Below, piece after piece: positions 11,822-41,947 of a DNA stretch of 64,000 nt (within the stretch, counting starts at the first letter, position 1; every line of letters begins with the position of its first letter). The notes under the pieces are model-generated. The model did no database searches, was not told where the DNA came from, and saw only the letters and a program-made list of their open reading frames with translations. Both the position numbers and the translations under genes were made by a program. The DNA is from Candidatus Poribacteria bacterium (lineage in GTDB: Bacteria; Poribacteria; WGA-4E; WGA-3G): assembly GCA_963668035.1 (NCBI GenBank), contig OY764073.1, forward strand, positions 66,930 through 130,929, given 5' to 3'.

Positions 11822-12589
11822 ATGAAAGGCACAAGACCCTTAGATAATACCGAAATCCGAAAGGTATCGGAAGCGTTTAGCGGGACGTTTGCGATTCGGA
11901 ATCGGAACCTGTTTATGTTAGGCGTATCCGTCGGGGGACGGATTAGCGAGTTACTTGCCTTGAAAGTGGGAGATGTATGGCAGAATAACAAGCCTGTCAA
12001 GGATCTGTTGTTTGATCGGAGTATTGTGAAAGGCGGCGAAGTGTCAAGAGCTGTGCCTGTGAATGCAGATGGGAGGCAGGCAATTGAAGCACTCATCGCT
12101 TGGCATATAGAATTATATGGCGGGGCCGATCCAACCCGTCCGCTGTTTCCGTCCCGGAAAGGCGGCGGCACGAAAGCGATGACGCGAATAGCGGCGCATG
12201 ATGTGCTGAAACCGGCGTTTGAGGCTGCGGGATTAAATGGAAAACTCGGCACACATTCGCTGCGGAAGTCGTATGCGCAGCGTCTTTATGAGCAGACGAA
12301 CGATATTTATGCTGTTCAAGAGATGTTAGGGCATAAAAAGGTGGTTACGACGCAACAATATTTAGGCGTGAATTACGCCAGTGTTCGGGAGGCGTCGGAG
12401 GCGATGTCGGTTCATTCCGAATCTAACAAAAGAGCCAAAACGTTAAGTTCAGTCAATGAAGCCAAAGATGATGAACTTCTCATTGAATTGCTCCGAAGAG
12501 GTTATGATGTCGCTCGACTCCTTCAAAAAGACGAAACAGAGCAACCTTTTCAACTGCCAGTTACGGAAACTGAATCGAAATTTGTTTAA
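11822..12589 (+). CDS. Tyrosine-type site-specific recombinase, catalytic domain only
   Basis: GGRISELLAL (box-I Arg), HSLRKSYA (H-x-x-R) and LGHKKVVTTQQY (His and catalytic Tyr). There is no N-terminal SAM-like DNA-binding domain. Good RBS (AAGGAG). Confidence 0.7.
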   Translation: MKGTRPLDNTEIRKVSEAFSGTFAIRNRNLFMLGVSVGGRISELLALKVGDVWQNNKPVKDLLFDRSIVKGGEVSRAVPVNADGRQAIEALIAWHIELYGGADPTRPLFPSRKGGGTKAMTRIAAHDVLKPAFEAAGLNGKLGTHSLRKSYAQRLYEQTNDIYAVQEMLGHKKVVTTQQYLGVNYASVREASEAMSVHSESNKRAKTLSSVNEAKDDELLIELLRRGYDVARLLQKDETEQPFQLPVTETESKFV

Positions 12590-13311: not shown

Positions 13312-14508
13312 CTAAAACAACCACCGTTGGAATAGCACCCCTTTTCCTTCAGGTTCAACCACGCGCAGCAACACCTTTCCATTCGTGTAAAAATCCACTG
13401 CCATGAAACCGGTATGCTGATGTGCAAACAGAGTGTTGTCCCCGGACATCACTTCTGTTACTTTTCGACTCGCGGCAGCCCCGCTGACAAGAAGATAATC
13501 GGTAACGTTGCCTTTCAGGACCTGTAAAGAGTGTTCATGTCCGGAGGCATAGATTAAAAGCGGTGTGCCTTCAGGTGGCAGTTTGCGCGTGGAAAATGCG
13601 CGGTTGAGTTGTGCTATCAAATTATTGTAGGGTGCGCTGCCGATATCTTGGTCAGGTGTGTAGAGGTGTCCTCTTGTGTACGCATACATTGAACCGAGGA
13701 TCGGTGTCGGAATCCAGAGCCACTTCTTTAAAACTCTGGCGGGAAATAGATGCGATTTCCAGTCAAAGTAGCCGCCGTGCGGACCGTAACTTTGCAATGA
13801 ATGGTGTCCGACAACGATGACTGGCAATTCTGTATCTAATAGTGCTATCAGTTCCGCTATAACTGTTTCAGGCGATTTCTCTGGTTTTTCATGTTTGTGA
13901 AGCCACCATTGTGTATCCAGCACAATAAGCCGGATGGCTGGATTGGCTTTCGGTAATTCGATCGCAACGGGTCCGGGTGAACCGCCAGCAGGCAGGAAAT
14001 TCTGTTCGCCAATGAGGGCATCGTTGATAAACTTTTCTTGTGTGCGCAGCGCGCTGTATCCTTCCGCGCCGCCGCTTGCCCAATCGTGGTTTCCGGGAAT
14101 AAAGAGTCCATGGACCCCCGCGTCTTTGACAACGGCGATTTGTGGGACGAGTCGTTCCGCTGCTTCATGCTTTCGGCGTTCTGTCATGCCTTCCGGGTAC
14201 ATATTATCCCCCAGAAAGACGATGCTCGTTTTTGTTGCGTCCTTTCGCGCCCACTCGCCGAGGGTTTTCAGGACGGGTTCATCCGGTTTCGGTGCCCCGC
14301 CATCACCGAGTAACAAAAGGCGGTAGCGGAGTACGCCTTCTGTTTCACGCGCACGTCTTTCAATATCAGGTATGTCGGGATGGTAATAGGGTTTGGTATG
14401 ACTGCACCCTGCACTTGTCAGCTGTATCGCCTGAATAATACAACAGAGCAAAATAATGTAGCGGGTAAGATGCGGGCGGTTTAAAAAACGGGAAGCGTTA
14501 TGTTTCAT
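13312..14508 (-). CDS. Calcineurin-like metallophosphoesterase, probably a lipoprotein
   Basis: GDNMY, GNHDW and GHEH metallophosphatase motifs. The start was chosen at MKH so that a lipobox-like LTSAGC follows a hydrophobic segment. Confidence 0.7.
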   Translation of the reverse strand: MKHNASRFLNRPHLTRYIILLCCIIQAIQLTSAGCSHTKPYYHPDIPDIERRARETEGVLRYRLLLLGDGGAPKPDEPVLKTLGEWARKDATKTSIVFLGDNMYPEGMTERRKHEAAERLVPQIAVVKDAGVHGLFIPGNHDWASGGAEGYSALRTQEKFINDALIGEQNFLPAGGSPGPVAIELPKANPAIRLIVLDTQWWLHKHEKPEKSPETVIAELIALLDTELPVIVVGHHSLQSYGPHGGYFDWKSHLFPARVLKKWLWIPTPILGSMYAYTRGHLYTPDQDIGSAPYNNLIAQLNRAFSTRKLPPEGTPLLIYASGHEHSLQVLKGNVTDYLLVSGAAASRKVTEVMSGDNTLFAHQHTGFMAVDFYTNGKVLLRVVEPEGKGVLFQRWLF

Positions 14509-15835
14509 GTGTGGACAACTGTTTGATATGTTCAACCAGTTCCTCCCGCGGGACGATTTGCTGTTCTCTATTCGCGAGGTTTCGGAGTGCAACTGTGCCA
14601 GCTGCTACTTCATCGGAGCCGAGGATAACAGCATACGGAATGCCTTTGGTATCCGCATACTTTATCTGTGCACTCATGCGCGCTGGTCGGGAATAAACCT
14701 CTGTACGGATACCGCTTTGCCGCAGCAGCGTCGCAACTTTCAAGGATTCCTGCGCGAGATCGGCATCGAAAACGGTTACTAATACCTGCGTCACCGTCTT
14801 CCCGACTGTAGGCGGAAACATATCCAATTCTGCTATAACATCAATAATCCTGTCAAGTCCGAAACTGATGCCGGTTGCCGGGTATCCCTGTTTACTAAAA
14901 CTTCCGATAAGTTCGTCATATCTACCGCCACCGGTGATGCTCCCGATTTTCGGTTCTTCAACGACAGTCTCATAGATCGGACCCGTATAGTATTCTAAGC
15001 CCCGTACCATCGCGACGTTCACGCGATAGAATTCCTCTGGAACGCCGAGCGTTGAGAGATAACCGAGCAACTCCTCCAATTCCGCTATACCTTCTCGTGC
15101 TGCTTCGGAATCACCGAGTTGCATATTGAGCGCATTCAAGACTGTCGCTGCATCACCTTCAATCTCAAGCAGAGCAAGGAGTTTCTCAATCACAGGCTCC
15201 GGTATCTGGTTTTCTGCTAATTCGGCTCTGACACCTCCTAACCCAATTTTATCCAGTTTATCGATGGAACGATAGAGACCGCCAAGTTGTTCAGTCGGTA
15301 CGCCAGCGAATTGTCCGATGCCGGTGATGAGCTTCCGGTCATTGATGTTAATCTCAAATTGCTTGAAACCGAGTCGAGTTAGTAACTGATAGATGAGATT
15401 GACGTTTTCAGCATCAGCGAGCATACTCTCGCTGCCGACCGTATCTGCATCACATTGGAAGAATTGACGGTAACGCCCCTTTTGTGGACGTTCCGCTCGC
15501 CAGACCGGATCGATCTGGTATCGCTTAAACGGTTTCGGGAGTTGTGGATACATCGCGACAACTCGACAGAGCGGCACTGTAAGATCGTAGCGGAGGGAGA
15601 GGTCCTCTTTTCCACCGGTGTGTCCTGCCTGATAGATAAGTTTCTCTGCATCCGGTCCGTATTTACCTGTGAGGACTTCGGATAACTCGAGGGCAGGGGT
15701 CTGTAAAGGTTCAAACCCGAATTCCTCGAACACCTCACGAATCACACCTATGACGTACTGCCTGCGAATCATCTGTTCAGGTAAGATGTCGCGCATCCCG
15801 CGGGGAACGCGCGGTTTAATGAATGGGGTTGCCAT
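14498..15835 (-). CDS. hisS: Histidine--tRNA ligase
   Basis: Class-II aaRS motifs and full-length similarity to HisRS (RGLEYYTG, GGGRYD). The ATG at 15835 has AGGAG 8 nt upstream. Confidence 0.9.
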   Translation of the reverse strand: MATPFIKPRVPRGMRDILPEQMIRRQYVIGVIREVFEEFGFEPLQTPALELSEVLTGKYGPDAEKLIYQAGHTGGKEDLSLRYDLTVPLCRVVAMYPQLPKPFKRYQIDPVWRAERPQKGRYRQFFQCDADTVGSESMLADAENVNLIYQLLTRLGFKQFEININDRKLITGIGQFAGVPTEQLGGLYRSIDKLDKIGLGGVRAELAENQIPEPVIEKLLALLEIEGDAATVLNALNMQLGDSEAAREGIAELEELLGYLSTLGVPEEFYRVNVAMVRGLEYYTGPIYETVVEEPKIGSITGGGRYDELIGSFSKQGYPATGISFGLDRIIDVIAELDMFPPTVGKTVTQVLVTVFDADLAQESLKVATLLRQSGIRTEVYSRPARMSAQIKYADTKGIPYAVILGSDEVAAGTVALRNLANREQQIVPREELVEHIKQLSTHET

Positions 15836-15892
15836 ACGTTTTGCTCCTATAGACATATCACCCCTATGGGGTGAGGGATAATTGACGCAAAT

Positions 15893-16675
15893 CTAAATGT
15901 GTCCGGGAAGTGTTTGGCTGCGTCTTCTTCGCAAACCTTTCTGGAGCGTCTGCTTGAACGCTTCAATTTTTTCCCGTTTCCAAGAATCTCTGAGTGCCTT
16001 CGGGTTGGCGATGAGCGTAGATTCGGATTCGCGTAAAAGTTCAATCTCCTTGAGCGCATTCGCCTTGATTGTGCGCCGGGATGCTGTCGAGTTGTCGATG
16101 ATGGCATCGGCTTCCTCTGGTGGTTTCCCCTCGGTTGCCCCGAAGGACAGCATAAGCGTGATCGGCGACTGGTAAGAACCGCGCGTATTCAACCGCTTCC
16201 ACGGTGTTAAAATTGTCGGAGCAACCCTGTTTTCAGTCTTTTCAAGGATATATTTCTCGGCGATATTCAGATATTCGGTAGAAATGAGGATGTCTCCATC
16301 GGCGCGGTTCATCAAATCCTCAAATGTGCTGATGTCTTCCCGTTCCTCACGGACAGCGAGAATAATATCAATGTGTCCATATTCGAGAGGCAGGATCTCT
16401 TCAACATCTGAATCTGTTTCTTCAACCCAATCTTGACCGGTAATCCCAACGTCGTAAAAATCATCCATGCCGACATAGACGGGTATCTCTTGTGGACGTG
16501 AAATCTTGATCTGAAATTCGCTATCATTGCAAAAGGTTGCGCGATAGGATCGATCCGTTGCGGTATAACCCTTGAGTTCATAACCGGCACGCTGAAACAT
16601 TTCAAGGGTATCCGCTTGTAGACTCCCTTTCGGTAAAAGTAGTTTCAGCGTCCGTTGTGATTCCGTTTGCATCAT
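15893..16675 (-). CDS. hisG: ATP phosphoribosyltransferase catalytic subunit (HisZ-dependent type, with insertions)
   Basis: LKLLLPKGSLQ N-terminus and a ...DAIIDNSTASRRTIKANAL signature region. The start was moved to the ATG at 16675 (AAGGAG RBS) to avoid a 74-nt overlap with hisZ. Confidence 0.8.
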   Translation of the reverse strand: MMQTESQRTLKLLLPKGSLQADTLEMFQRAGYELKGYTATDRSYRATFCNDSEFQIKISRPQEIPVYVGMDDFYDVGITGQDWVEETDSDVEEILPLEYGHIDIILAVREEREDISTFEDLMNRADGDILISTEYLNIAEKYILEKTENRVAPTILTPWKRLNTRGSYQSPITLMLSFGATEGKPPEEADAIIDNSTASRRTIKANALKEIELLRESESTLIANPKALRDSWKREKIEAFKQTLQKGLRRRRSQTLPGHI

Positions 16676-16688
16676 GGTTCTCCTTCTT

Positions 16689-18113
16689 CTATGAAAGATC
16701 ATCAACAGCGACAACCTGTGTGTCACCCGTTTTAATGTGAATTCGTTGGATCGGTTTATCACGGTCTAAACGGAGCAGATAAGTGTAGTTCGCGTGTGCC
16801 GCATAATCCTGTTGTACCTGTAGATCGCGTTCCATCAGATCCACTTCCACGTGCTTGCCTTGCGCCCGTAATGTTTCAGCGAGTCGTTGCGCTTGGGCGA
16901 CACACTCTGGGGTTTTTGCAGCGATGAAATAATCTCTGCTTCCGTTACCGGTCGCCGCGCCTGTGGCCGCAAAGGCTTGGACAAGTACCTCAAATTGGAA
17001 CGCAAAGCCAGCACCGGGTATTGAGGGACCGCCAAAAGAAGCGATGAGCTCGTCATATCTTCCACCGCCACAGAGCGGTAATCCTTTTTCGGAGGCTTCA
17101 ATCTGAAAGACCGTGCCGGTATAGAAATCAAACCCGCGCGTGATACCCAAATTGATCTCAAAATCTGTAATATTGTAGTTTTCCAAACAGTTGCAGAGTG
17201 CCATCAGTTCTTGACGTGCCGTTTTTGCAGTGTCGCCGAGAAGTGTCTCCCACGATGCCATGACGGTATCCTTATCGCCACAAATCTTTGAGACATCTAT
17301 ACACCGTTGTGCTGTCTCTTCGGAAACGTTGAAATAGCGGAGCCACCGTGCTTTATAGGTCTCTTCGGCGATTGCTGGTAATTTCTCTACGTAAGTGTCG
17401 GTTAATTCCTGAACTGTAGAAGCCTCAATTTTATTGGCACCTTGGTAGTCGGGTCCTTGTGACCGACGCAGCATATTGAGCGTCTCTTGGAGTGTCTCCA
17501 GATCCCAGAGATGGCTTTCGTTGCGGAGACGGACGAGGTAATCAATATCCCATATAATTTCAGCGTGGTCCTTGGTATCTAATGCGACCTGTTTGAAAAT
17601 CTCGCGGAAGATCCCGGTATTACCGATTCTTAATTGCGTCTGTGAGATGTTGAGTTTCTCAAGGATTCGGATCGGGATCGCAATGATTTCGGCATCAGCA
17701 TGGACAGAAGCCGGTCCAACGAGTTCAACGCCTGCCTGTCGGAATTCGCGTTTGACTTCGGTGCCATCGGTGATCGGCTCCTGCCGGACACACTGCCCGA
17801 TGTAGTAGAGTTTATACGGATAGGGCAGGTGTTTGAGTTCGCCATTGGCAATGAGACGGCAGACAGGCGCGGTCAACTCAGGGCGCAGCGCATAATCTAC
17901 CCTATCCGAACCGACGAAGGTAAACATTTTGTGACGGATTTCTTCGCCGGCTTGTGCGGACAGAAGTGCGAAGGATTCAAACAACGGTGTCTGTACCTGT
18001 GCGTATCCGTAGGTTTCAAAGGTTTCACGTACGATATTCTCAACGAAATTTCGCTGAGCCATCTGCTCGGGTAGAAAGTCATTCGTCCCGGCAGGTTTAT
18101 CAAAATTTTCCAT
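16689..18113 (-). CDS. hisZ: ATP phosphoribosyltransferase regulatory subunit (HisRS paralogue)
   Basis: HisRS-like catalytic-core fold motifs without an anticodon-binding domain signature. Sits immediately upstream of hisG. Confidence 0.75.
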   Translation of the reverse strand: MENFDKPAGTNDFLPEQMAQRNFVENIVRETFETYGYAQVQTPLFESFALLSAQAGEEIRHKMFTFVGSDRVDYALRPELTAPVCRLIANGELKHLPYPYKLYYIGQCVRQEPITDGTEVKREFRQAGVELVGPASVHADAEIIAIPIRILEKLNISQTQLRIGNTGIFREIFKQVALDTKDHAEIIWDIDYLVRLRNESHLWDLETLQETLNMLRRSQGPDYQGANKIEASTVQELTDTYVEKLPAIAEETYKARWLRYFNVSEETAQRCIDVSKICGDKDTVMASWETLLGDTAKTARQELMALCNCLENYNITDFEINLGITRGFDFYTGTVFQIEASEKGLPLCGGGRYDELIASFGGPSIPGAGFAFQFEVLVQAFAATGAATGNGSRDYFIAAKTPECVAQAQRLAETLRAQGKHVEVDLMERDLQVQQDYAAHANYTYLLRLDRDKPIQRIHIKTGDTQVVAVDDLS

Positions 18114-18302
18114 ATTTTTTATGTCCCTAAGGGTCCATCCTTTATCTATTTATCTATTTTCAAAAAACTTAAAAATTCTCAATCCGGCCGCGATCTCGGC
18201 AGAAACCCGTTTTTTTGACCATCAACTCGTCTTCCGCATTTTATTTTATAAAGGCACGAGTTGATGATCAAAACGGAAAAAACGGAGCGAAAACTTAATA
18301 GT

Positions 18303-18388
18303 TAAAAATAAAAAAACCAGTAAACGTCTGCTCTTTTCTCGCGCATGCTGACAACATAGCACGGAGGAGAGCGGCTCGTTTACTGGGA
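18303..18388 (-). terminator. Intrinsic terminator of the his leader (attenuator)
   Basis: On the minus-strand transcript, CCAGUAAACG...CGUUUACUGG (10-bp stem enclosing further pairing) is followed by UUUUUUUAUUUUU. It lies between the His-leader peptide and hisZ. Confidence 0.65.
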
Positions 18389-18451
18389 TCCAAACAGGTT
18401 AAACTTGCTTCGTATCAAAGATGTTTATTTATATTCCCTCATCCGCTCTAC

Positions 18452-18508
18452 TCAAAGGTGGACCGAATGATGGTGATGCATGTTGAATATGTTATTAATG
18501 TTACGCAT
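18452..18508 (-). promoter_or_regulatory. Histidine-rich leader peptide ORF. Core MHHHHSVHL (18452-18481); a possible 18-aa form is MRNINNIFNMHHHHSVHL.
   Basis: Minus-strand reading ATG CAT CAC CAT CAT TCG GTC CAC CTT TGA. Five His in nine codons, directly upstream of a terminator and of hisZ-hisG-hisS. Confidence 0.65.
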
Positions 18509-18650
18509 TTTCTTTGTTTTTTTGTAGGAGCGACCTCCCGGTCGCGATCTTTTCTTGTCAAGAAAACCAATGATTTTAATTCCATTTAATGATATTATAC
18601 CGTATTGGAAGATGAATGTCAAATTTTTTTAAAGGTCGCCAAATAACGCA

Positions 18651-20294
18651 ATGAGAATTAAAGCTATTTTTATCATCGCAATACTCGGTGTACTGTTGTC
18701 GGTACTCCTATGCGGTATCTATTTTCAGTTCACCTATTTTGAACCGGATACCGTCTCCTACCTGTTCCAAGCGAAGTTGTTCGCAGACGGTAAACTCTCG
18801 GTGCCCGCGCCCCCGGAACACGGATTCTCTTCTTCACCACATATTAACATTTTCAACGGCAAATGGTATTCAAAATACCCGTTCGGCAACGCCTTGATGC
18901 TGATGTTCGGGGTGTTTGTCAACGCACCGTGGCTGATTCCCGCGCTGGCGACAGGCGGTGCGCTCCTGTTTCTTTTCCTTTTTGTGAAAGAGATATACGG
19001 GGACATTCATAATGGCATTGCGCTCCTCGCTGCGGTGCTTGGGCTCATTTCGCCGGCAACGCTCGGTATGGGGTCAACGTGGTTTAGTGAACCGGTGAGT
19101 CGTTTTTACCTCGCGCTTTTCCTGTTTACACTCCTCAAGACCTTGAATTGCAAAAGCGATGCGCCGCTGCTCGCGCGGATCGGTTATCCGTTGCTTTCCG
19201 GGTTTGCATTGGGATATGCGTTCAATACGCGTCCGCTCTCGGCTATCGTCTTTGGCGTTGTTGGCGCAGGGTTAACACTCTATCATCTTTTCACGCAACG
19301 GCAGCAGTGGCAAGTACTATCCGCTACGTTGAAACGTTTCGGATTCTTCTTTATTCCGTTTGTTGTGATGCTCGGCGTGTGTATGGCGTGGAACGCACAT
19401 TTCACAGAAGATCCGTTCATGTTCACACATACGGTTGCGCAACCTTATGATAAAATCGGGTTCGGGGCGCGGACAGAAGGCTATGCCCCTAACATAGAAC
19501 AGGCGTTTATTTTCACGCCGTCATGGGCCATTGAAAGGACGTGGCGGCATATTCTGCCGTGTATCAGTTTCAACGCGCTCGGGTGGGGGAGTTATCATCA
19601 CAATTTGTTGAGGGATGCCGAATTGTCGTTGACGTGGCTCATCGCCTTTGTGCCGCTAATTCTGCCCTGGTGTCTGCTACTTGTTCCCTTTTTCCATCAA
19701 TCTCGGAACAGGTATGATGTGTTTTGTCTGGCACTACTTGTGGCTAATTTGCTGCTCTATGCCTTTTTCTATTTTGAAGGTTCAACGTGGGGATTCACGC
19801 CTGTCAATGCGCGTTATTATACCGAGTCGACATTTCTCGGTTTCATTCCGTTAGTAGCACGCGGGATGGTTATCTGTTATGAAGGGTTCAAGCTGCGCCA
19901 GCGACGCGGGTTTGCGTTTGTTGTCGGTGTATGCCTATTGCTGTTCAGCGTCAATACTGTGTGGAGTTATGTCCGTATTGGGGAAAGGTATCAGAATTGG
20001 GGACATGTTTATCAGAAGCTGCCCCCGATGGTGGCGGAGCAGGATATTCACAACGCCGTTATTTTCGTATCTCGCCACCGGGGTGCGCCAATTGGGGATT
20101 ATCCGTTTAAGAGTCTCGAAGAGGCGGATATCGTCTATTTTAAACTGGGTCCCGCACCGCGCTGGAAGTTGACCAACAGCGATTGGGAGAATGTGTACGC
20201 ACAGTATTTCACTGGTAGGAACGCGTATCTGTATGTACCCGGTGAAAACAAGTTGACCCCTTTACTGAATAAGGAGGTTTCTATAGATGAATGA
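18651..20294 (+). CDS. Polytopic membrane protein, GT-C/ArnT-PMT-like putative glycosyltransferase
   Basis: About 12 predicted TM segments. N-terminal region resembles dolichyl-phosphate-mannose/ArnT-type transferases. Confidence 0.5.
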   Translation: MRIKAIFIIAILGVLLSVLLCGIYFQFTYFEPDTVSYLFQAKLFADGKLSVPAPPEHGFSSSPHINIFNGKWYSKYPFGNALMLMFGVFVNAPWLIPALATGGALLFLFLFVKEIYGDIHNGIALLAAVLGLISPATLGMGSTWFSEPVSRFYLALFLFTLLKTLNCKSDAPLLARIGYPLLSGFALGYAFNTRPLSAIVFGVVGAGLTLYHLFTQRQQWQVLSATLKRFGFFFIPFVVMLGVCMAWNAHFTEDPFMFTHTVAQPYDKIGFGARTEGYAPNIEQAFIFTPSWAIERTWRHILPCISFNALGWGSYHHNLLRDAELSLTWLIAFVPLILPWCLLLVPFFHQSRNRYDVFCLALLVANLLLYAFFYFEGSTWGFTPVNARYYTESTFLGFIPLVARGMVICYEGFKLRQRRGFAFVVGVCLLLFSVNTVWSYVRIGERYQNWGHVYQKLPPMVAEQDIHNAVIFVSRHRGAPIGDYPFKSLEEADIVYFKLGPAPRWKLTNSDWENVYAQYFTGRNAYLYVPGENKLTPLLNKEVSIDE

Positions 20295-22296
20295 ATTATC
20301 GCGCTTTTCTGAACAAAACAGTCGTAGCAGCGGTGATGAGACCGCCTTGGGGTTACCCGAGGGAGCGATTGCTCGGTTAGGTAGGGGACGTATAGCTGAT
20401 TTGGCGTTTTCTCCGGATGGCGAGTCCCTTGCAATCGCAACTACCGTTGGAGTCTGGATCTATGAACTCGCTACCATGGAACCCATCGCGTTGTGGGAAA
20501 CTGAAAGGGGACTGGTTTCTACCGTCGTCTTTTCTCCTAATGGACAATGGATTGCCACCATCAACTGGGACGGTATCATTAAGATAAGGGAGACAGAGAC
20601 GCAACGGTGCACCGCTAAGATACAAATATCGCGCTATCGGAACGCCCTTGCTTTTTCCTCGGATAGCCAATATCTCGCTGCATCCGGGAGTGGTTACGGT
20701 GGTGCTTATGTATGGGACGCAGAAACCGGCAGGCATGTCACAAGTTTCCAAGGCGCAGCACCCCTGAAGGAAGGAGAACAGGCACCCGCCAGGTTTTTGG
20801 TCCATTTTTCACCCGACGGGCAGTGTCTCGCCTATGTTTTGGGGCGAGTCGAGCTTGCTGTCCGGCATATAGAAACGAAAGAACACATCGCGCGCCTCAA
20901 GCATTCATCCCGAACACGCCGTATACAAGGTTTCGCCTTTTCACCGTGTGGAAGGTTCCTTGCTGTTAGTAGTCAAAATACGTCCAGCAAGCGTCAGGGC
21001 ACTACTGAGTTACAGGTGTGGAATATTGATGAAGAAACCCTTGAGATGACTGATTCGGATTATGGTGGAGATAAATTGATACCCGCCTACTCGTCTGATG
21101 GAACCTTACGGGTTGCCGACTTGCATGAGGATAAGGTGGTACTGTGGGATGCATCCCAGCGAGAGCCGCTGGACACTTTCGAATACAGCGGAAATGTCAG
21201 AAACGCCTGCAGGTTTTCTTCTGATAGGCAGCAATTCGCAATCGCCACAGAATGTGAGATGCGCGTGTGGCGCGCGGATGCCCCGCTCACGGTAGCATCT
21301 CATCTGGAACATACGGCGAGCAGGGTTCGGGCACTGTTTTTTATGCAAGGTGGTAAGACATTGGTGAGCGGGTACGGTGGTCAAAGCGGTATTATGTTCT
21401 GGGATGTTGTCCAAAGGCGAGTACAGCGAACACTTAGGCCCTCTTACGGAAAGTGTGTTTTATCCCCGTGTGAAAACATGTTGGCTATCAACGTTGGCGA
21501 GAATGGGGAAACGATTGAAGTTTTAAGGGGTGCCTCCGGGATACCGGTGACAACGCTCACTGAACATAAACAGGAAGTAACTGCCCTTGCATTCTCACCT
21601 ACCGGTGAACACCTTGTTAGCGGAGATTTGGAAGGAAACTTGTGTGTATGGTCTGTTGAGTCTTGGCGGGAGCTGCGAAAATTCATCGGACATACGACTT
21701 GGGTTACAACCTTAGCATTTCATCCGAGTGGCGAGAAAGTTGCTACGGCAGCCCGCGACTACACAGTTCGAGTCTGGGATGTTGAAAGCGGTGAACAGCT
21801 CGCTTTGCTACCCCTACCCTTCTTAGCCGAGGAACCAGATGTATCCCTATATAGAGGCGACCAACGGCAAATCCGGCGCATCTTAAATCGTTTGAGTCAG
21901 GGTTACACTGATAGGTCCTCCCTTCATTCCATCACCTTTTCTCCATCTGGCGATCTCATTGCTGGTGGACTGCATCGTGAGGTATGTTTGTGGGATGCTA
22001 CGACTTACGAGACTCACATGGTGATAGTCCCACCGGATACTTGTCAGCGTCCTATGGCATTGATATTTTCACCGTGTGGACGCTATCTTGTCTCCGGTTC
22101 TTGGTGGCAAGAGGGACAAGAAAAGGTGTCTATCCGGTTGTGGGAAGTTTCAACAGGTGAGAATATTGCGACTTTCTGGAGCCATCCGACAGATATTCAG
22201 GAACTTGCTTTTTCACCGGATGGCACGCTTTTAGCGAGCGGAAGTTTGGATTCCACCATCCTACTCTGGGATATGAAACCCGTGATAGGCACTTAA
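20287..22296 (+). CDS. WD40 / beta-propeller repeat protein
   Basis: Many repeats of the form FSPDGxxLA...V(W)D. Its start overlaps the upstream stop (ATGAATGA). Confidence 0.8.
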   Translation: MNELSRFSEQNSRSSGDETALGLPEGAIARLGRGRIADLAFSPDGESLAIATTVGVWIYELATMEPIALWETERGLVSTVVFSPNGQWIATINWDGIIKIRETETQRCTAKIQISRYRNALAFSSDSQYLAASGSGYGGAYVWDAETGRHVTSFQGAAPLKEGEQAPARFLVHFSPDGQCLAYVLGRVELAVRHIETKEHIARLKHSSRTRRIQGFAFSPCGRFLAVSSQNTSSKRQGTTELQVWNIDEETLEMTDSDYGGDKLIPAYSSDGTLRVADLHEDKVVLWDASQREPLDTFEYSGNVRNACRFSSDRQQFAIATECEMRVWRADAPLTVASHLEHTASRVRALFFMQGGKTLVSGYGGQSGIMFWDVVQRRVQRTLRPSYGKCVLSPCENMLAINVGENGETIEVLRGASGIPVTTLTEHKQEVTALAFSPTGEHLVSGDLEGNLCVWSVESWRELRKFIGHTTWVTTLAFHPSGEKVATAARDYTVRVWDVESGEQLALLPLPFLAEEPDVSLYRGDQRQIRRILNRLSQGYTDRSSLHSITFSPSGDLIAGGLHREVCLWDATTYETHMVIVPPDTCQRPMALIFSPCGRYLVSGSWWQEGQEKVSIRLWEVSTGENIATFWSHPTDIQELAFSPDGTLLASGSLDSTILLWDMKPVIGT

Positions 22297-40183: not shown

Positions 40184-41947
40184 ATGTTCTGGAAAAATAA
40201 AGTAGGTTCACAACAGAGGGAAAATAGAGGTTTCTGTAATGTCCTTGTTGGCGCGCTCACAGGTCTTGTGCTAATCGGTTTTTGTATGAACTTCGCTGGT
40301 GCCGATGCCGATTCGTTGAAAGCCGCTTACAAATATCAGGAAATTAAGGCGATTACTAAGAGCCTTAGGAAACAGAACACGTCTGAAAATTTAGAGAAGT
40401 TGATGGCGAAAACCAGAGACTTTGTTAAGGCACACCCGGAATACAAACGCGTGGATGAAGTTTACTATCTTCTCGGTAACGCTTTGGTTCGCTTGGAGCG
40501 TGTTGACGAAGGCATTGAAGTCTTTAACGGACTTATCAAGGATCGTCCGAATGCACGCTACGTTGAACGCTGCCTATTAGAATTAGGATTAGCGTATGAC
40601 AAACTCGGCAAGCACGATGAAGCCGATGCGGCTTACCAGCAATTAATAAATCACCCGAAGTACGGCTCACGATCACAAGCGAAACTCGCGAAGAAGATCC
40701 TTGAGCAGGAAAGAACCGACCGAAAGGGCGAATTGCCCAAACCGCCCGGGGCAAGTCCTGCACCCGGAATGCGGCCGAGCGAATGGCTTAACAAACCCGC
40801 ATTGGATTTTCAGGTGACAGATTTAAACGGTGAAACACTCTCCTTAGAAAACTACCGTGGACAAGTTGTTTTGCTCGACTTCTGGGCGACGTGGTGTCCG
40901 CCTTGTATCGCAGAGATACCGAACGTTAAAAGGACTTATGAAAAGTATAAGGATCAGAAGTTCCAAATCATCGGTATCAGTCTTGACAGGTCAAAAGAAC
41001 CGCTTGCGGCATACATTGAGGAAAAGGGGCTCGGATGGCTCCAATATTGGGACAACACGCGCAAAGTTAGCAATCTTTACAAAGTCCAGGCGATCCCGTC
41101 AACCTTTTTGATTGATGGTGAAGGTGTTATCCGCAAGACGAGTCTCCGCGGTCACTCGCTTGAGCATGCCGTCGCCGAATTGGTGAAGGAAAATCTTGCG
41201 AAACCTACCGAGTCGATACCTGCAACGAAGATTCTTAAACAGGAGACAACGCCTGAAGGCGCGCAACGGACGGAACCTAATGTCAGAGACATCATCACTG
41301 CTGCTGTCGCTGCACACGGCGGACTTGAGAAACTACAAGCCGTGAAAAATATCGTGACAGAATCTCACAGTTTTGAACATTTTCCTGATGGGGATGTGCA
41401 GGATGAGGGACGCTCTAAAGCGTACTTTTACCGCGACAAATTCCGTAGCGATTGGGAGGCAAACGGTCAAACAGGCGGTTTAATCTTTGATGGTAATTCT
41501 CTCTTTCAGTTAGCAGATGGCGCGGTCCAACCTGTACCCGCTGAAGCAACTCAATCTTATATTACCTTCTTTAAAGATAGCTTTTTTCGGGAACCGATCT
41601 GGCTTTTACCCATGCTCTCAAAAGGCGATATTCCGGTTCAATACGCAGGCACAGCGGAAGTCAAGGGGATGCCTACGTCCGTTCTTCTTGTTACGCAGCC
41701 TTCTGGGAAAAAGCTGAAAGTCTTCATTAGCGATACAACGCACTATATCGTCCAGTTTAGTTATGACGTTGAGATCGGCGGCGGCGTGGAAAACGTGGTA
41801 GCGTTCTTTGAAGATTATCGGGATGTGGATGGCATTAAAATCGCACATCATCGCGCCACAAAGAACGGTGAATATCGGCAAATCTTGATTACCGATGTTA
41901 AATTGAACGCTGAAGTTGACGAGGCACTGTTTCGACCGGGAGAATAA
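40184..41947 (+). CDS. Paralogous TPR + TlpA-type thioredoxin protein with an extra ~250-aa C-terminal domain
   Basis: FWATWCPPCIAEIP. About 45% identical to the upstream gene over the shared region. The track start (40025) overlaps the previous gene. The ATG at 40184 follows GGAGG. Confidence 0.75.
   Translation: MFWKNKVGSQQRENRGFCNVLVGALTGLVLIGFCMNFAGADADSLKAAYKYQEIKAITKSLRKQNTSENLEKLMAKTRDFVKAHPEYKRVDEVYYLLGNALVRLERVDEGIEVFNGLIKDRPNARYVERCLLELGLAYDKLGKHDEADAAYQQLINHPKYGSRSQAKLAKKILEQERTDRKGELPKPPGASPAPGMRPSEWLNKPALDFQVTDLNGETLSLENYRGQVVLLDFWATWCPPCIAEIPNVKRTYEKYKDQKFQIIGISLDRSKEPLAAYIEEKGLGWLQYWDNTRKVSNLYKVQAIPSTFLIDGEGVIRKTSLRGHSLEHAVAELVKENLAKPTESIPATKILKQETTPEGAQRTEPNVRDIITAAVAAHGGLEKLQAVKNIVTESHSFEHFPDGDVQDEGRSKAYFYRDKFRSDWEANGQTGGLIFDGNSLFQLADGAVQPVPAEATQSYITFFKDSFFREPIWLLPMLSKGDIPVQYAGTAEVKGMPTSVLLVTQPSGKKLKVFISDTTHYIVQFSYDVEIGGGVENVVAFFEDYRDVDGIKIAHHRATKNGEYRQILITDVKLNAEVDEALFRPGE

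Follow-up and report, generated by a model that had tools for sequence, protein, structure and literature searches.

Introduction

The hisL leader of Escherichia coli and Salmonella combines a short open reading frame (ORF) with tandem His codons, an intrinsic terminator, and base pairings that depend on the position of the ribosome, all placed directly 5' of the gene for ATP phosphoribosyltransferase. The Salmonella his leader is modelled as a six-segment cascade, A-F, and the trp leader, trpL, follows a three-strand logic in which strand 2 is masked by a ribosome that has arrived at the stop codon. In E. coli, the pheM-pheST leader provides a precedent for placing an aminoacyl-tRNA synthetase under leader-peptide attenuation. 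Attenuators of this kind have been documented mostly in Proteobacteria and Actinobacteria, and in a few Firmicutes. Here we analyse a 64,000-nt stretch of Candidatus Poribacteria DNA (contig OY764073.1, positions 66,930-130,929), referred to as the window, in which a similar arrangement precedes hisZ, hisG and hisS; features described below lie on the minus strand unless stated otherwise. We conclude that this leader is very probably a functional attenuator of transcription, ribosome-mediated and sensing His-tRNA through a leader peptide, that controls hisZ-hisG-hisS.

Outside the Proteobacteria, His-leader peptides have been predicted 5' of hisZ and of a hisS paralogue in the Bacillus cereus group (PMC2965389), 5' of hisZ in C. 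difficile and B. cereus relatives (PMC4833913), and 5' of his operons in Peptostreptococcaceae and Erysipelotrichales (PMC9413887). These Firmicutes leaders are lineage-specific, with no similarity between lineages (PMC2965389, PMC9413887, PMC4833913). Compared by their published description, they belong to another phylum and resemble the Poribacteria element in having 3-5 His codons and a terminator/antiterminator pair, in lying outside the Proteobacteria, and in placing a gene of the histidyl-tRNA synthetase (HisRS) family under the same type of control. A preliminary description of the window had spoken of classic attenuation in a non-proteobacterial context; that interpretation is supported, but the context is less novel than was implied, given the leaders predicted for Firmicutes hisZ genes. 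Histidine T-box leaders 5' of hisS or his genes in Firmicutes and Actinobacteria also sense the charging of tRNA-His and convert it into terminator read-through (PMC2965389, PMC9413887). Signal and output are therefore shared with the Poribacteria element, but the T-box binds uncharged tRNA directly, without translation. Our literature search found no publication linking Poribacteria to an element of this kind.

The Poribacteria leader has four consecutive His codons and one more, against seven in hisL, and the operon behind it reads hisZ-hisG(short)-hisS rather than the hisGDCBHAFI of E. coli and Salmonella. Its layout is a three-strand, trp-like one, with 1:2, 2:3 and 3:4 pairings and a central hairpin, and is simpler than that of hisL. 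The trpL and pheM-pheST leaders sense another amino acid and are unrelated in sequence. In Poribacteria, a bona fide hisS stands in the same operon as hisZ and hisG.

The expectation in the preliminary description that the Rfam His_leader family would match weakly or not at all proved correct. Rfam 15 returned nothing relevant in the whole window at the gathering score, in the interval 18050-18700 at E <= 10, or in ten diverse related loci, and in a control the RF00514 His_leader model gave E. coli hisL 131.6 bits (gathering threshold, 49 bits). Because of this difference, we consider that the Poribacteria element works like the enterobacterial his leader but stands outside RF00514. A T-box (RF00230) or other known riboswitch was set aside, with no match in the window, the leader region or the ten loci, and some weak miRNA-like Rfam matches reflect only a long hairpin in the spacer before hisZ. 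The mechanism is well known, and no new one is revealed; the sequence family is undescribed and absent from Rfam. With this element, classic leader-peptide attenuation reaches a candidate phylum whose members are uncultured symbionts of sponges, and a clean, well-conserved candidate RNA family becomes available.

A His-codon leader conserved across Poribacteria

The leader ORF (18508-18452) has 18 codons, encodes MRNINNIFNMHHHHSVHL, and ends with a TGA stop (18454-18452). After the ATG at 18508, the codons CGT AAC ATT AAT AAC ATA TTC AAC ATG lead to the regulatory His codons CAT CAC CAT CAT (18478-18467; segment 1 of the pairing scheme described below), with TCG GTC CAC CTT and the stop coming next, so that the fifth His codon lies just beyond the run. 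The four-His reading given in the preliminary description (MHHHHSVHL) matches the minus strand exactly, and the in-frame upstream ATG to which it drew attention turns out to be the conserved start, which in the clade of the window stands nine codons 5' of the His run. Only a few genomes share the inner ATG (18481), and most relatives have Ile at that place. A sigma-70-type promoter, TTGACA-17 nt-TATAAT, lies at 18622-18594 with a 12/12 match to the consensus, which was the measure by which promoters were judged throughout; from its position we infer a transcription start near 18587. The resulting 5' untranslated region (UTR; 18509-18587) contains a small hairpin, GCGACC-GGGA-GGTCGC (18545-18530), is A-rich just 5' of the ATG, and varies between clades. 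The span 18114-18510 originally assigned to the element does hold the features named for it, but the element begins farther upstream, at the promoter.

Relatives were collected by a scan with the HisZ protein, taking one genome per species. The 80 loci obtained all belong to Candidatus Poribacteria, with HisZ identities of 55-89%, and 78 of them have informative upstream sequence (L001 and L032 do not). Two of the 78, L011 and L048, are contigs ending inside the leader, in which its downstream parts are still present. Alignment A1 comprises 75 leader sequences, of which 74 are distinct. A scan of metagenomes with a degenerate core pattern gave only five loci, four of which are ordinary orthologues; the fifth, L082, is divergent.

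The same element is present in all 78 informative loci: 74 have an uninterrupted His run, two an interrupted one (H-R-H-H-S-H in L049 and H-N-H-S-V-H in L075), and two are the contigs cut inside the leader. The alignment of orthologous regions that the preliminary description had called for thus shows the His run to be kept: upstream sequence extends into the leader ORF in 76 loci, and 74 of these have at least three consecutive His codons. The leader ends HHH(H)-S-[V/I]-H-x-stop in 74 loci. Across the 75 aligned sequences, the three core His codons never give way to another amino acid, and CAT and CAC swap synonymously. The run and its four-codon distance to the stop are fixed, and start codon, frame and stop position are kept; the N-terminal half of the peptide is wholly different between the two main clades (MLNTTTFNI... 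vs MLMLFF...). Four independent 3-nt indels in the leader ORF all preserve the frame, the stop alternates between TGA and TAA, and two 1-nt deletions beside it are rescued by an adjacent TAG. We take the synonymous His codons, the in-frame indels and the rescued stops as signs that the leader frame is read.

A separate variant occurs in L017 and L030, where the leader stop is TGG instead of TGA and the ORF runs 9-11 codons longer through the segment that follows (HFWVERMRGK and HFWVERMRVNK, respectively). As a variant occurring in nature, it should change how the attenuator behaves.

The preliminary description held that the His run is hard to explain by chance. Taken alone, the run does not bear this out: the pattern CAYCAYCAY is seen 3 times in the window against 3.8 expected, and the only other His run besides the leader's own, at 41290, lies within a long ORF. 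Since the three-His run is not statistically unusual, the case for the element rests on context and comparison. On that footing the claim stands, because the whole arrangement recurs in 78 of 78 informative loci across the phylum, conserved although HisZ identity drops to 55%, and its terminator shows covariation. These comparative data effectively refute a chance co-occurrence of His codons and terminator without function, to which we attach practically no credence, and a chance origin is set aside on this evidence.

The terminator and the spacer before hisZ

A 10-bp stem about 65 nt downstream of the leader, followed by U7AU5 and, some 190 nt farther on, by hisZ, had been noted earlier, and this agrees with what we find. 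The intrinsic terminator (18386-18304) starts 66 nt 3' of the leader stop codon and consists of a 10-bp base stem in which CCAGTAAACG (18386-18377) pairs with CGTTTACTGG (18326-18317), topped by structured middle and apical stems, and of a T7-A-T5 tract (18316-18304). Across sequences, pairing in the base stem reaches 97.8%, and three of its pairs have changed on both sides. When the sequences are realigned clade by clade with the inner stems included, both-side changes occur in 6 of 19 pairs in clade A and in 5 of 18 in clade B, mostly in the apical stem. The terminator, which is part of the minimum-energy fold in 73 of 75 full-length leaders, is well supported by this covariation.

The spacer between terminator and hisZ (18303-18114) is variable and lies outside the conserved attenuator. 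The hisZ ATG (18113) stands 190 nt 3' of the T tract in the window; across loci the spacer measures 24-539 nt (median 85) and its sequence is not conserved. In the five genomes where it is only 24-31 nt long, there is no room for a separate hisZ promoter, and therefore hisZ must be transcribed there only by terminator read-through. The preliminary description had also raised the case of a hisZ promoter lying downstream of the leader. By computation the promoter lies instead 5' of the leader, with an 11-12/12 match in 71 of 75 aligned sequences, and of the remaining four at least L008 and L009 come from contigs that end early on the upstream side.

These observations bear directly on another reading, in which the small ORF and the promoter and terminator around it make up a separate gene that encodes a histidine-rich micropeptide, and hisZ-hisG-hisS are transcribed on their own from a promoter in the spacer. 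Both the promoter and the terminator are indeed strong, and the window spacer contains a weak promoter-like site (18271-18243). Outside the His run, however, the peptide is not conserved, and the non-coding block after the stop codon is better conserved than the peptide itself. The element always lies directly 5' of hisZ, or of hisG in L082, and the unconserved spacer, at 24-31 nt in five genomes, is too short for a promoter and a 5' UTR. We regard the micropeptide gene as very unlikely, and favour a leader whose terminator governs entry into the operon. For annotation, this means that no hypothetical gene should be called at the 18-codon ORF, and no operon end at the premature terminator.

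The window spacer has some peculiarities of its own. It contains a long hairpin (18285-18207), and the interval 18296-18207 of the minus strand comprises this 79-nt hairpin and, in addition, the motif AAGTTTTCGCTCCGTTTTTTCCG. Other Poribacteria loci have 13 occurrences of related motifs, lying in both orientations and solely in this spacer. A dispersed repeat was considered and rejected: the window has a single copy of AAGTTTTCGCTCCGTTTTTTCCG, and about 750 kb of related loci have none outside this spacer. The spacer could be an insertion-prone site or hold a second, clade-specific structure.

Predicted alternative pairings in the leader transcript

The preliminary description had proposed to look for mutually exclusive antiterminator and terminator pairings, and folding of the leader shows a conserved alternative, GAGUAGAGCGG/CCGCUCUCCUC, that overlaps the leader stop codon. 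The best-conserved block of the whole of alignment A1 is the non-coding UGAGUAGAGCGGAU, which begins at that stop. Within it, GAGUAGAGCGG, immediately after the leader (18453-18443), is almost invariant. This block, segment 2 (GAGTAGAGCGG), has the second base of the stop codon as its first nucleotide and forms the 5' strand of the proposed antiterminator. It is complementary, with one constant U-C mismatch, to CCGCUCUCCUC at 18374-18364. The latter stretch, segment 3 (CCGCTCTCCTC), is also the inner 5' strand of the terminator, and so is common to terminator and antiterminator. The 2:3 helix is 87.9% paired across the 74 distinct sequences, compared with about 40% in a whole-structure control in which the 3' partners were slid by 1-3 columns. 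In the most divergent loci, L079 and L082, the complementarity persists with its details rearranged. Antiterminators pairing directly with the terminator base arm CCCUGGUAAAC were ruled out by inspection, the only options being AU-rich and 4-5 bp long.

Full-length leaders fold in nearly all sequences into a hairpin 1:2, a small central hairpin and the terminator. Hairpin 1:2, which 73 of 75 sequences form in their minimum-energy fold, uses the His codons as its 5' strand and CGGATGAGGG (18445-18436) as its 3' strand; the latter overlaps segment 2 by 3 nt and sequesters the His codons. The register of this hairpin shifts by clade, the second clade pairing CAUCAUUCAAUCC with GGAUUAGAAUGAUG where the other pairs UCAUUCG with CGGAUGA. 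That the second clade reaches the same result in a different register argues that sequestering of the His codons is itself selected. The central hairpin, GCAAGT-TTA-ACCTGT (18408-18394), lies between segment 2 and the terminator and is 99.4% paired.

To represent a ribosome stalled at the His codons, the mRNA beneath a ribosome at the last codon of the run was masked and the transcript truncated before the 3' arm of the terminator. Under these conditions 2:3 is the minimum-energy structure in 62 of 75 truncated transcripts. Moving the masked ribosome to the stop codon prevents 2:3 from forming, and the inner stems of the terminator take its place. The stalled-at-His state is the more stable of the two, with a mean difference of -8.0 kcal/mol.

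A structured leader and terminator could also regulate the operon with something other than a ribosome as the sensor. A protein, tRNA-His or histidine might bind the RNA, in the manner of a riboswitch, a T-box or HutP/TRAP, and the His-codon block would then be kept only as a strand of helix 1:2. The pairing data give this idea some substance: helix 1:2 is 96-100% paired, which indicates constraint on the His-codon block as RNA, and Ser-to-Pro changes after the His run keep the pairing and not the peptide. The leader ATG lacks a Shine-Dalgarno motif, and the conserved block GAGUAGAG contains NAG triplets. HutP/TRAP-type proteins recognise NAG triplets in spaced arrays, but here there are merely two adjacent ones and no spaced array, and neither a T-box nor any other Rfam family appears even at E <= 10. 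The leader itself also speaks against such a sensor: an untranslated RNA would have no need to keep an ATG, a frame, a stop and a four-codon spacing, to take indels in threes, to rescue lost stops, or to vary its His codons synonymously only. The antiterminator strand, moreover, is the very stretch that a ribosome standing at the stop codon would cover. We therefore consider a sensor other than the ribosome unlikely, and adopt ribosome-mediated attenuation as the basis of the model that follows.

A model for attenuation

In this model, transcription would start at the promoter at 18622-18594, and the 18-codon leader would be translated while RNA polymerase moves on. When charged His-tRNA is scarce, the ribosome would stall on the four His codons (18478-18467) and leave segment 2, GAGUAGAGCGG, free. 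Taking the geometry from established ribosome footprints, a ribosome with its A site on the last His codon would cover about 12 nt downstream, and segment 2 begins 16 nt downstream. Segment 2 could then pair with segment 3, CCGCUCUCCUC, as soon as that is made, which would break the inner stems that nucleate the terminator and allow read-through into hisZ, hisG and hisS. When His-tRNA is plentiful, the ribosome would reach the UGA, where its footprint would cover exactly segment 2, and after its release the His-codon region could pair with CGGAUGAGGG to form hairpin 1:2. With segment 2 covered or engaged in 1:2, segment 3 would be free for the terminator, and transcription would stop at the T tract (18316-18304). 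An exposed segment 2 during a His stall, and a masked one at the stop, would thus give the logic of a trp/his-type attenuator, in which kinetic competition between 2:3 and the terminator would couple operon expression to histidine supply.

Several points weigh against this model or temper it. None of the 11 pairs of the 2:3 helix has changed on both sides. Against shuffled G-rich controls, the 2:3 duplex energy gives a mean z of -1.5, and for the window sequence 17 of 200 shuffles do as well; the shuffle test reaches only weak significance, since G-rich and pyrimidine-rich strands pair readily, and no energetic significance is therefore claimed for the antiterminator. With no both-side changes and a modest energy, the 2:3 pairing rests on conservation and position and not on covariation. 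Moreover, 2:3 precludes the base stem of the terminator only if the structure is nested, and a pseudoknot is topologically possible. The masked-fold procedure, applied to E. coli hisL as a control, produced the D:E antiterminator in both ribosome states and did not separate them, for which reason we do not treat it as a validated predictor or classifier. The absence of a Shine-Dalgarno motif before the leader ATG, which has an A-rich stretch only, is set against a window in which about 57% of ORFs have one. The promoter-like site in the window spacer matches the consensus at 9 of 12 positions and, finally, the relatives are uncultured genomes from metagenome or single-cell assembly.

If the model is correct, it predicts that Poribacteria tune both histidine synthesis, at its first step, and HisRS to the charging of tRNA-His, which would bear on amino-acid economy in sponges.

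A tRNA-His gene beside the leader in divergent relatives

In about 800 kb of related loci we found only two tRNA genes, both for tRNA-His(GTG), and both in the most divergent loci, L079 (3033-3107) and L082 (tRNA at 2716-2790 on the stored minus strand; the region concerned is 544-870 in leader orientation). Each closely precedes the His leader and shares its strand. The order in L082 is a perfect TTGACA-17-TATAAT promoter, tRNA-His, a 41-nt gap, the leader ATG, the terminator, hisG and hisS, and no other promoter-like site lies between tRNA-His and the leader ATG. This layout suggests that tRNA-His and attenuator are co-transcribed in L082, and the position of tRNA-His beside the leader fits a histidine/tRNA-His module.

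These observations invite a broader proposal, in which an independently evolved, phylum-wide His-leader RNA family places HisZ/HisG and histidyl-tRNA synthetase under one ribosome-sensed attenuator, transcribed in the deepest-branching relatives from the promoter of a tRNA-His gene. We put this forward tentatively, as an idea that in its full form is rather doubtful. If true, one transcription unit would hold the tRNA that is sensed together with its sensor, the synthetase and the gatekeeper enzyme of the pathway, and the strong promoter of the window could be a relic of a tRNA promoter.

L082 is a metagenome contig that is unusual in other respects. Its attenuator is followed directly by hisG, with no hisZ match (about 930-2650 in leader orientation). 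The HisS-like matches, which begin 125 nt after hisG, cover residues 210-450 only and fall in two frames; this segment could be a frameshifted or truncated gene, or reflect an assembly problem.

The hisZ-hisG-hisS operon and neighbouring genes

The first gene of the operon, hisZ (16689-18113), encodes a 474-aa regulatory subunit of ATP phosphoribosyltransferase, a HisRS paralogue. It has the HisRS catalytic fold without the anticodon-binding domain and scores as hisZ/hisS-like, with 281.5 bits on the hisS model (cut-off 286.75) and 235.5 bits on the hisZ model (cut-off 271.65). At 474 aa it is long for HisZ, and this length is kept in nearly all Poribacteria loci; its Pfam match falls in two stretches, which suggests an insertion. 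The short-form hisG (15893-16675, 260 aa) starts with an ATG at 16675 behind an AAGGAG Shine-Dalgarno motif, 13 nt after the hisZ stop. Then, 36 nt after the hisG stop, comes a complete hisS (14498-15856), encoding a 452-aa histidine--tRNA ligase with an HGTP_anticodon domain that scores 396.6 bits against the cut-off of 286.75.

The order hisZ-hisG-hisS is found in 80 of 80 loci, and a scan of the operon in the window showed no credible internal terminator or strong promoter, with nothing above chance. The earlier claim that hisS is co-regulated with hisG and hisZ is supported by this synteny and by the short gaps of 13 and 36 nt.

A 7-bp hairpin, TCACCCC-ATA-GGGGTGA (15874-15858), ends 1 nt 5' of the hisS ATG. 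As it has no T tract it is not a terminator; it holds the only Shine-Dalgarno-like purine run of the 36-nt hisG-hisS gap, and hence might modulate translation of hisS. A fourth ORF (14592-13312) follows hisS, with a weak metallophosphoesterase match (E = 1.2e-4) and synteny in about half of the loci; it may belong to the same operon, and a terminator-like site (13108-13092) follows it.

Near the end of the his operon, a 255-aa ORF on the plus strand (11822-12589) has a match to XerC/XerD-type tyrosine recombinases that is confined to their C-terminal catalytic part and falls far short of the family cut-offs; it could be a truncated or divergent integrase. On the other side, two genes diverge from the leader promoter region on the plus strand (18651-22296). 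The first is a 547-aa ORF, for which Pfam and NCBIfam gave no match; the second encodes a 669-aa WD40 beta-propeller protein, and eukaryote-like repeat proteins such as WD40 are often reported in Poribacteria.

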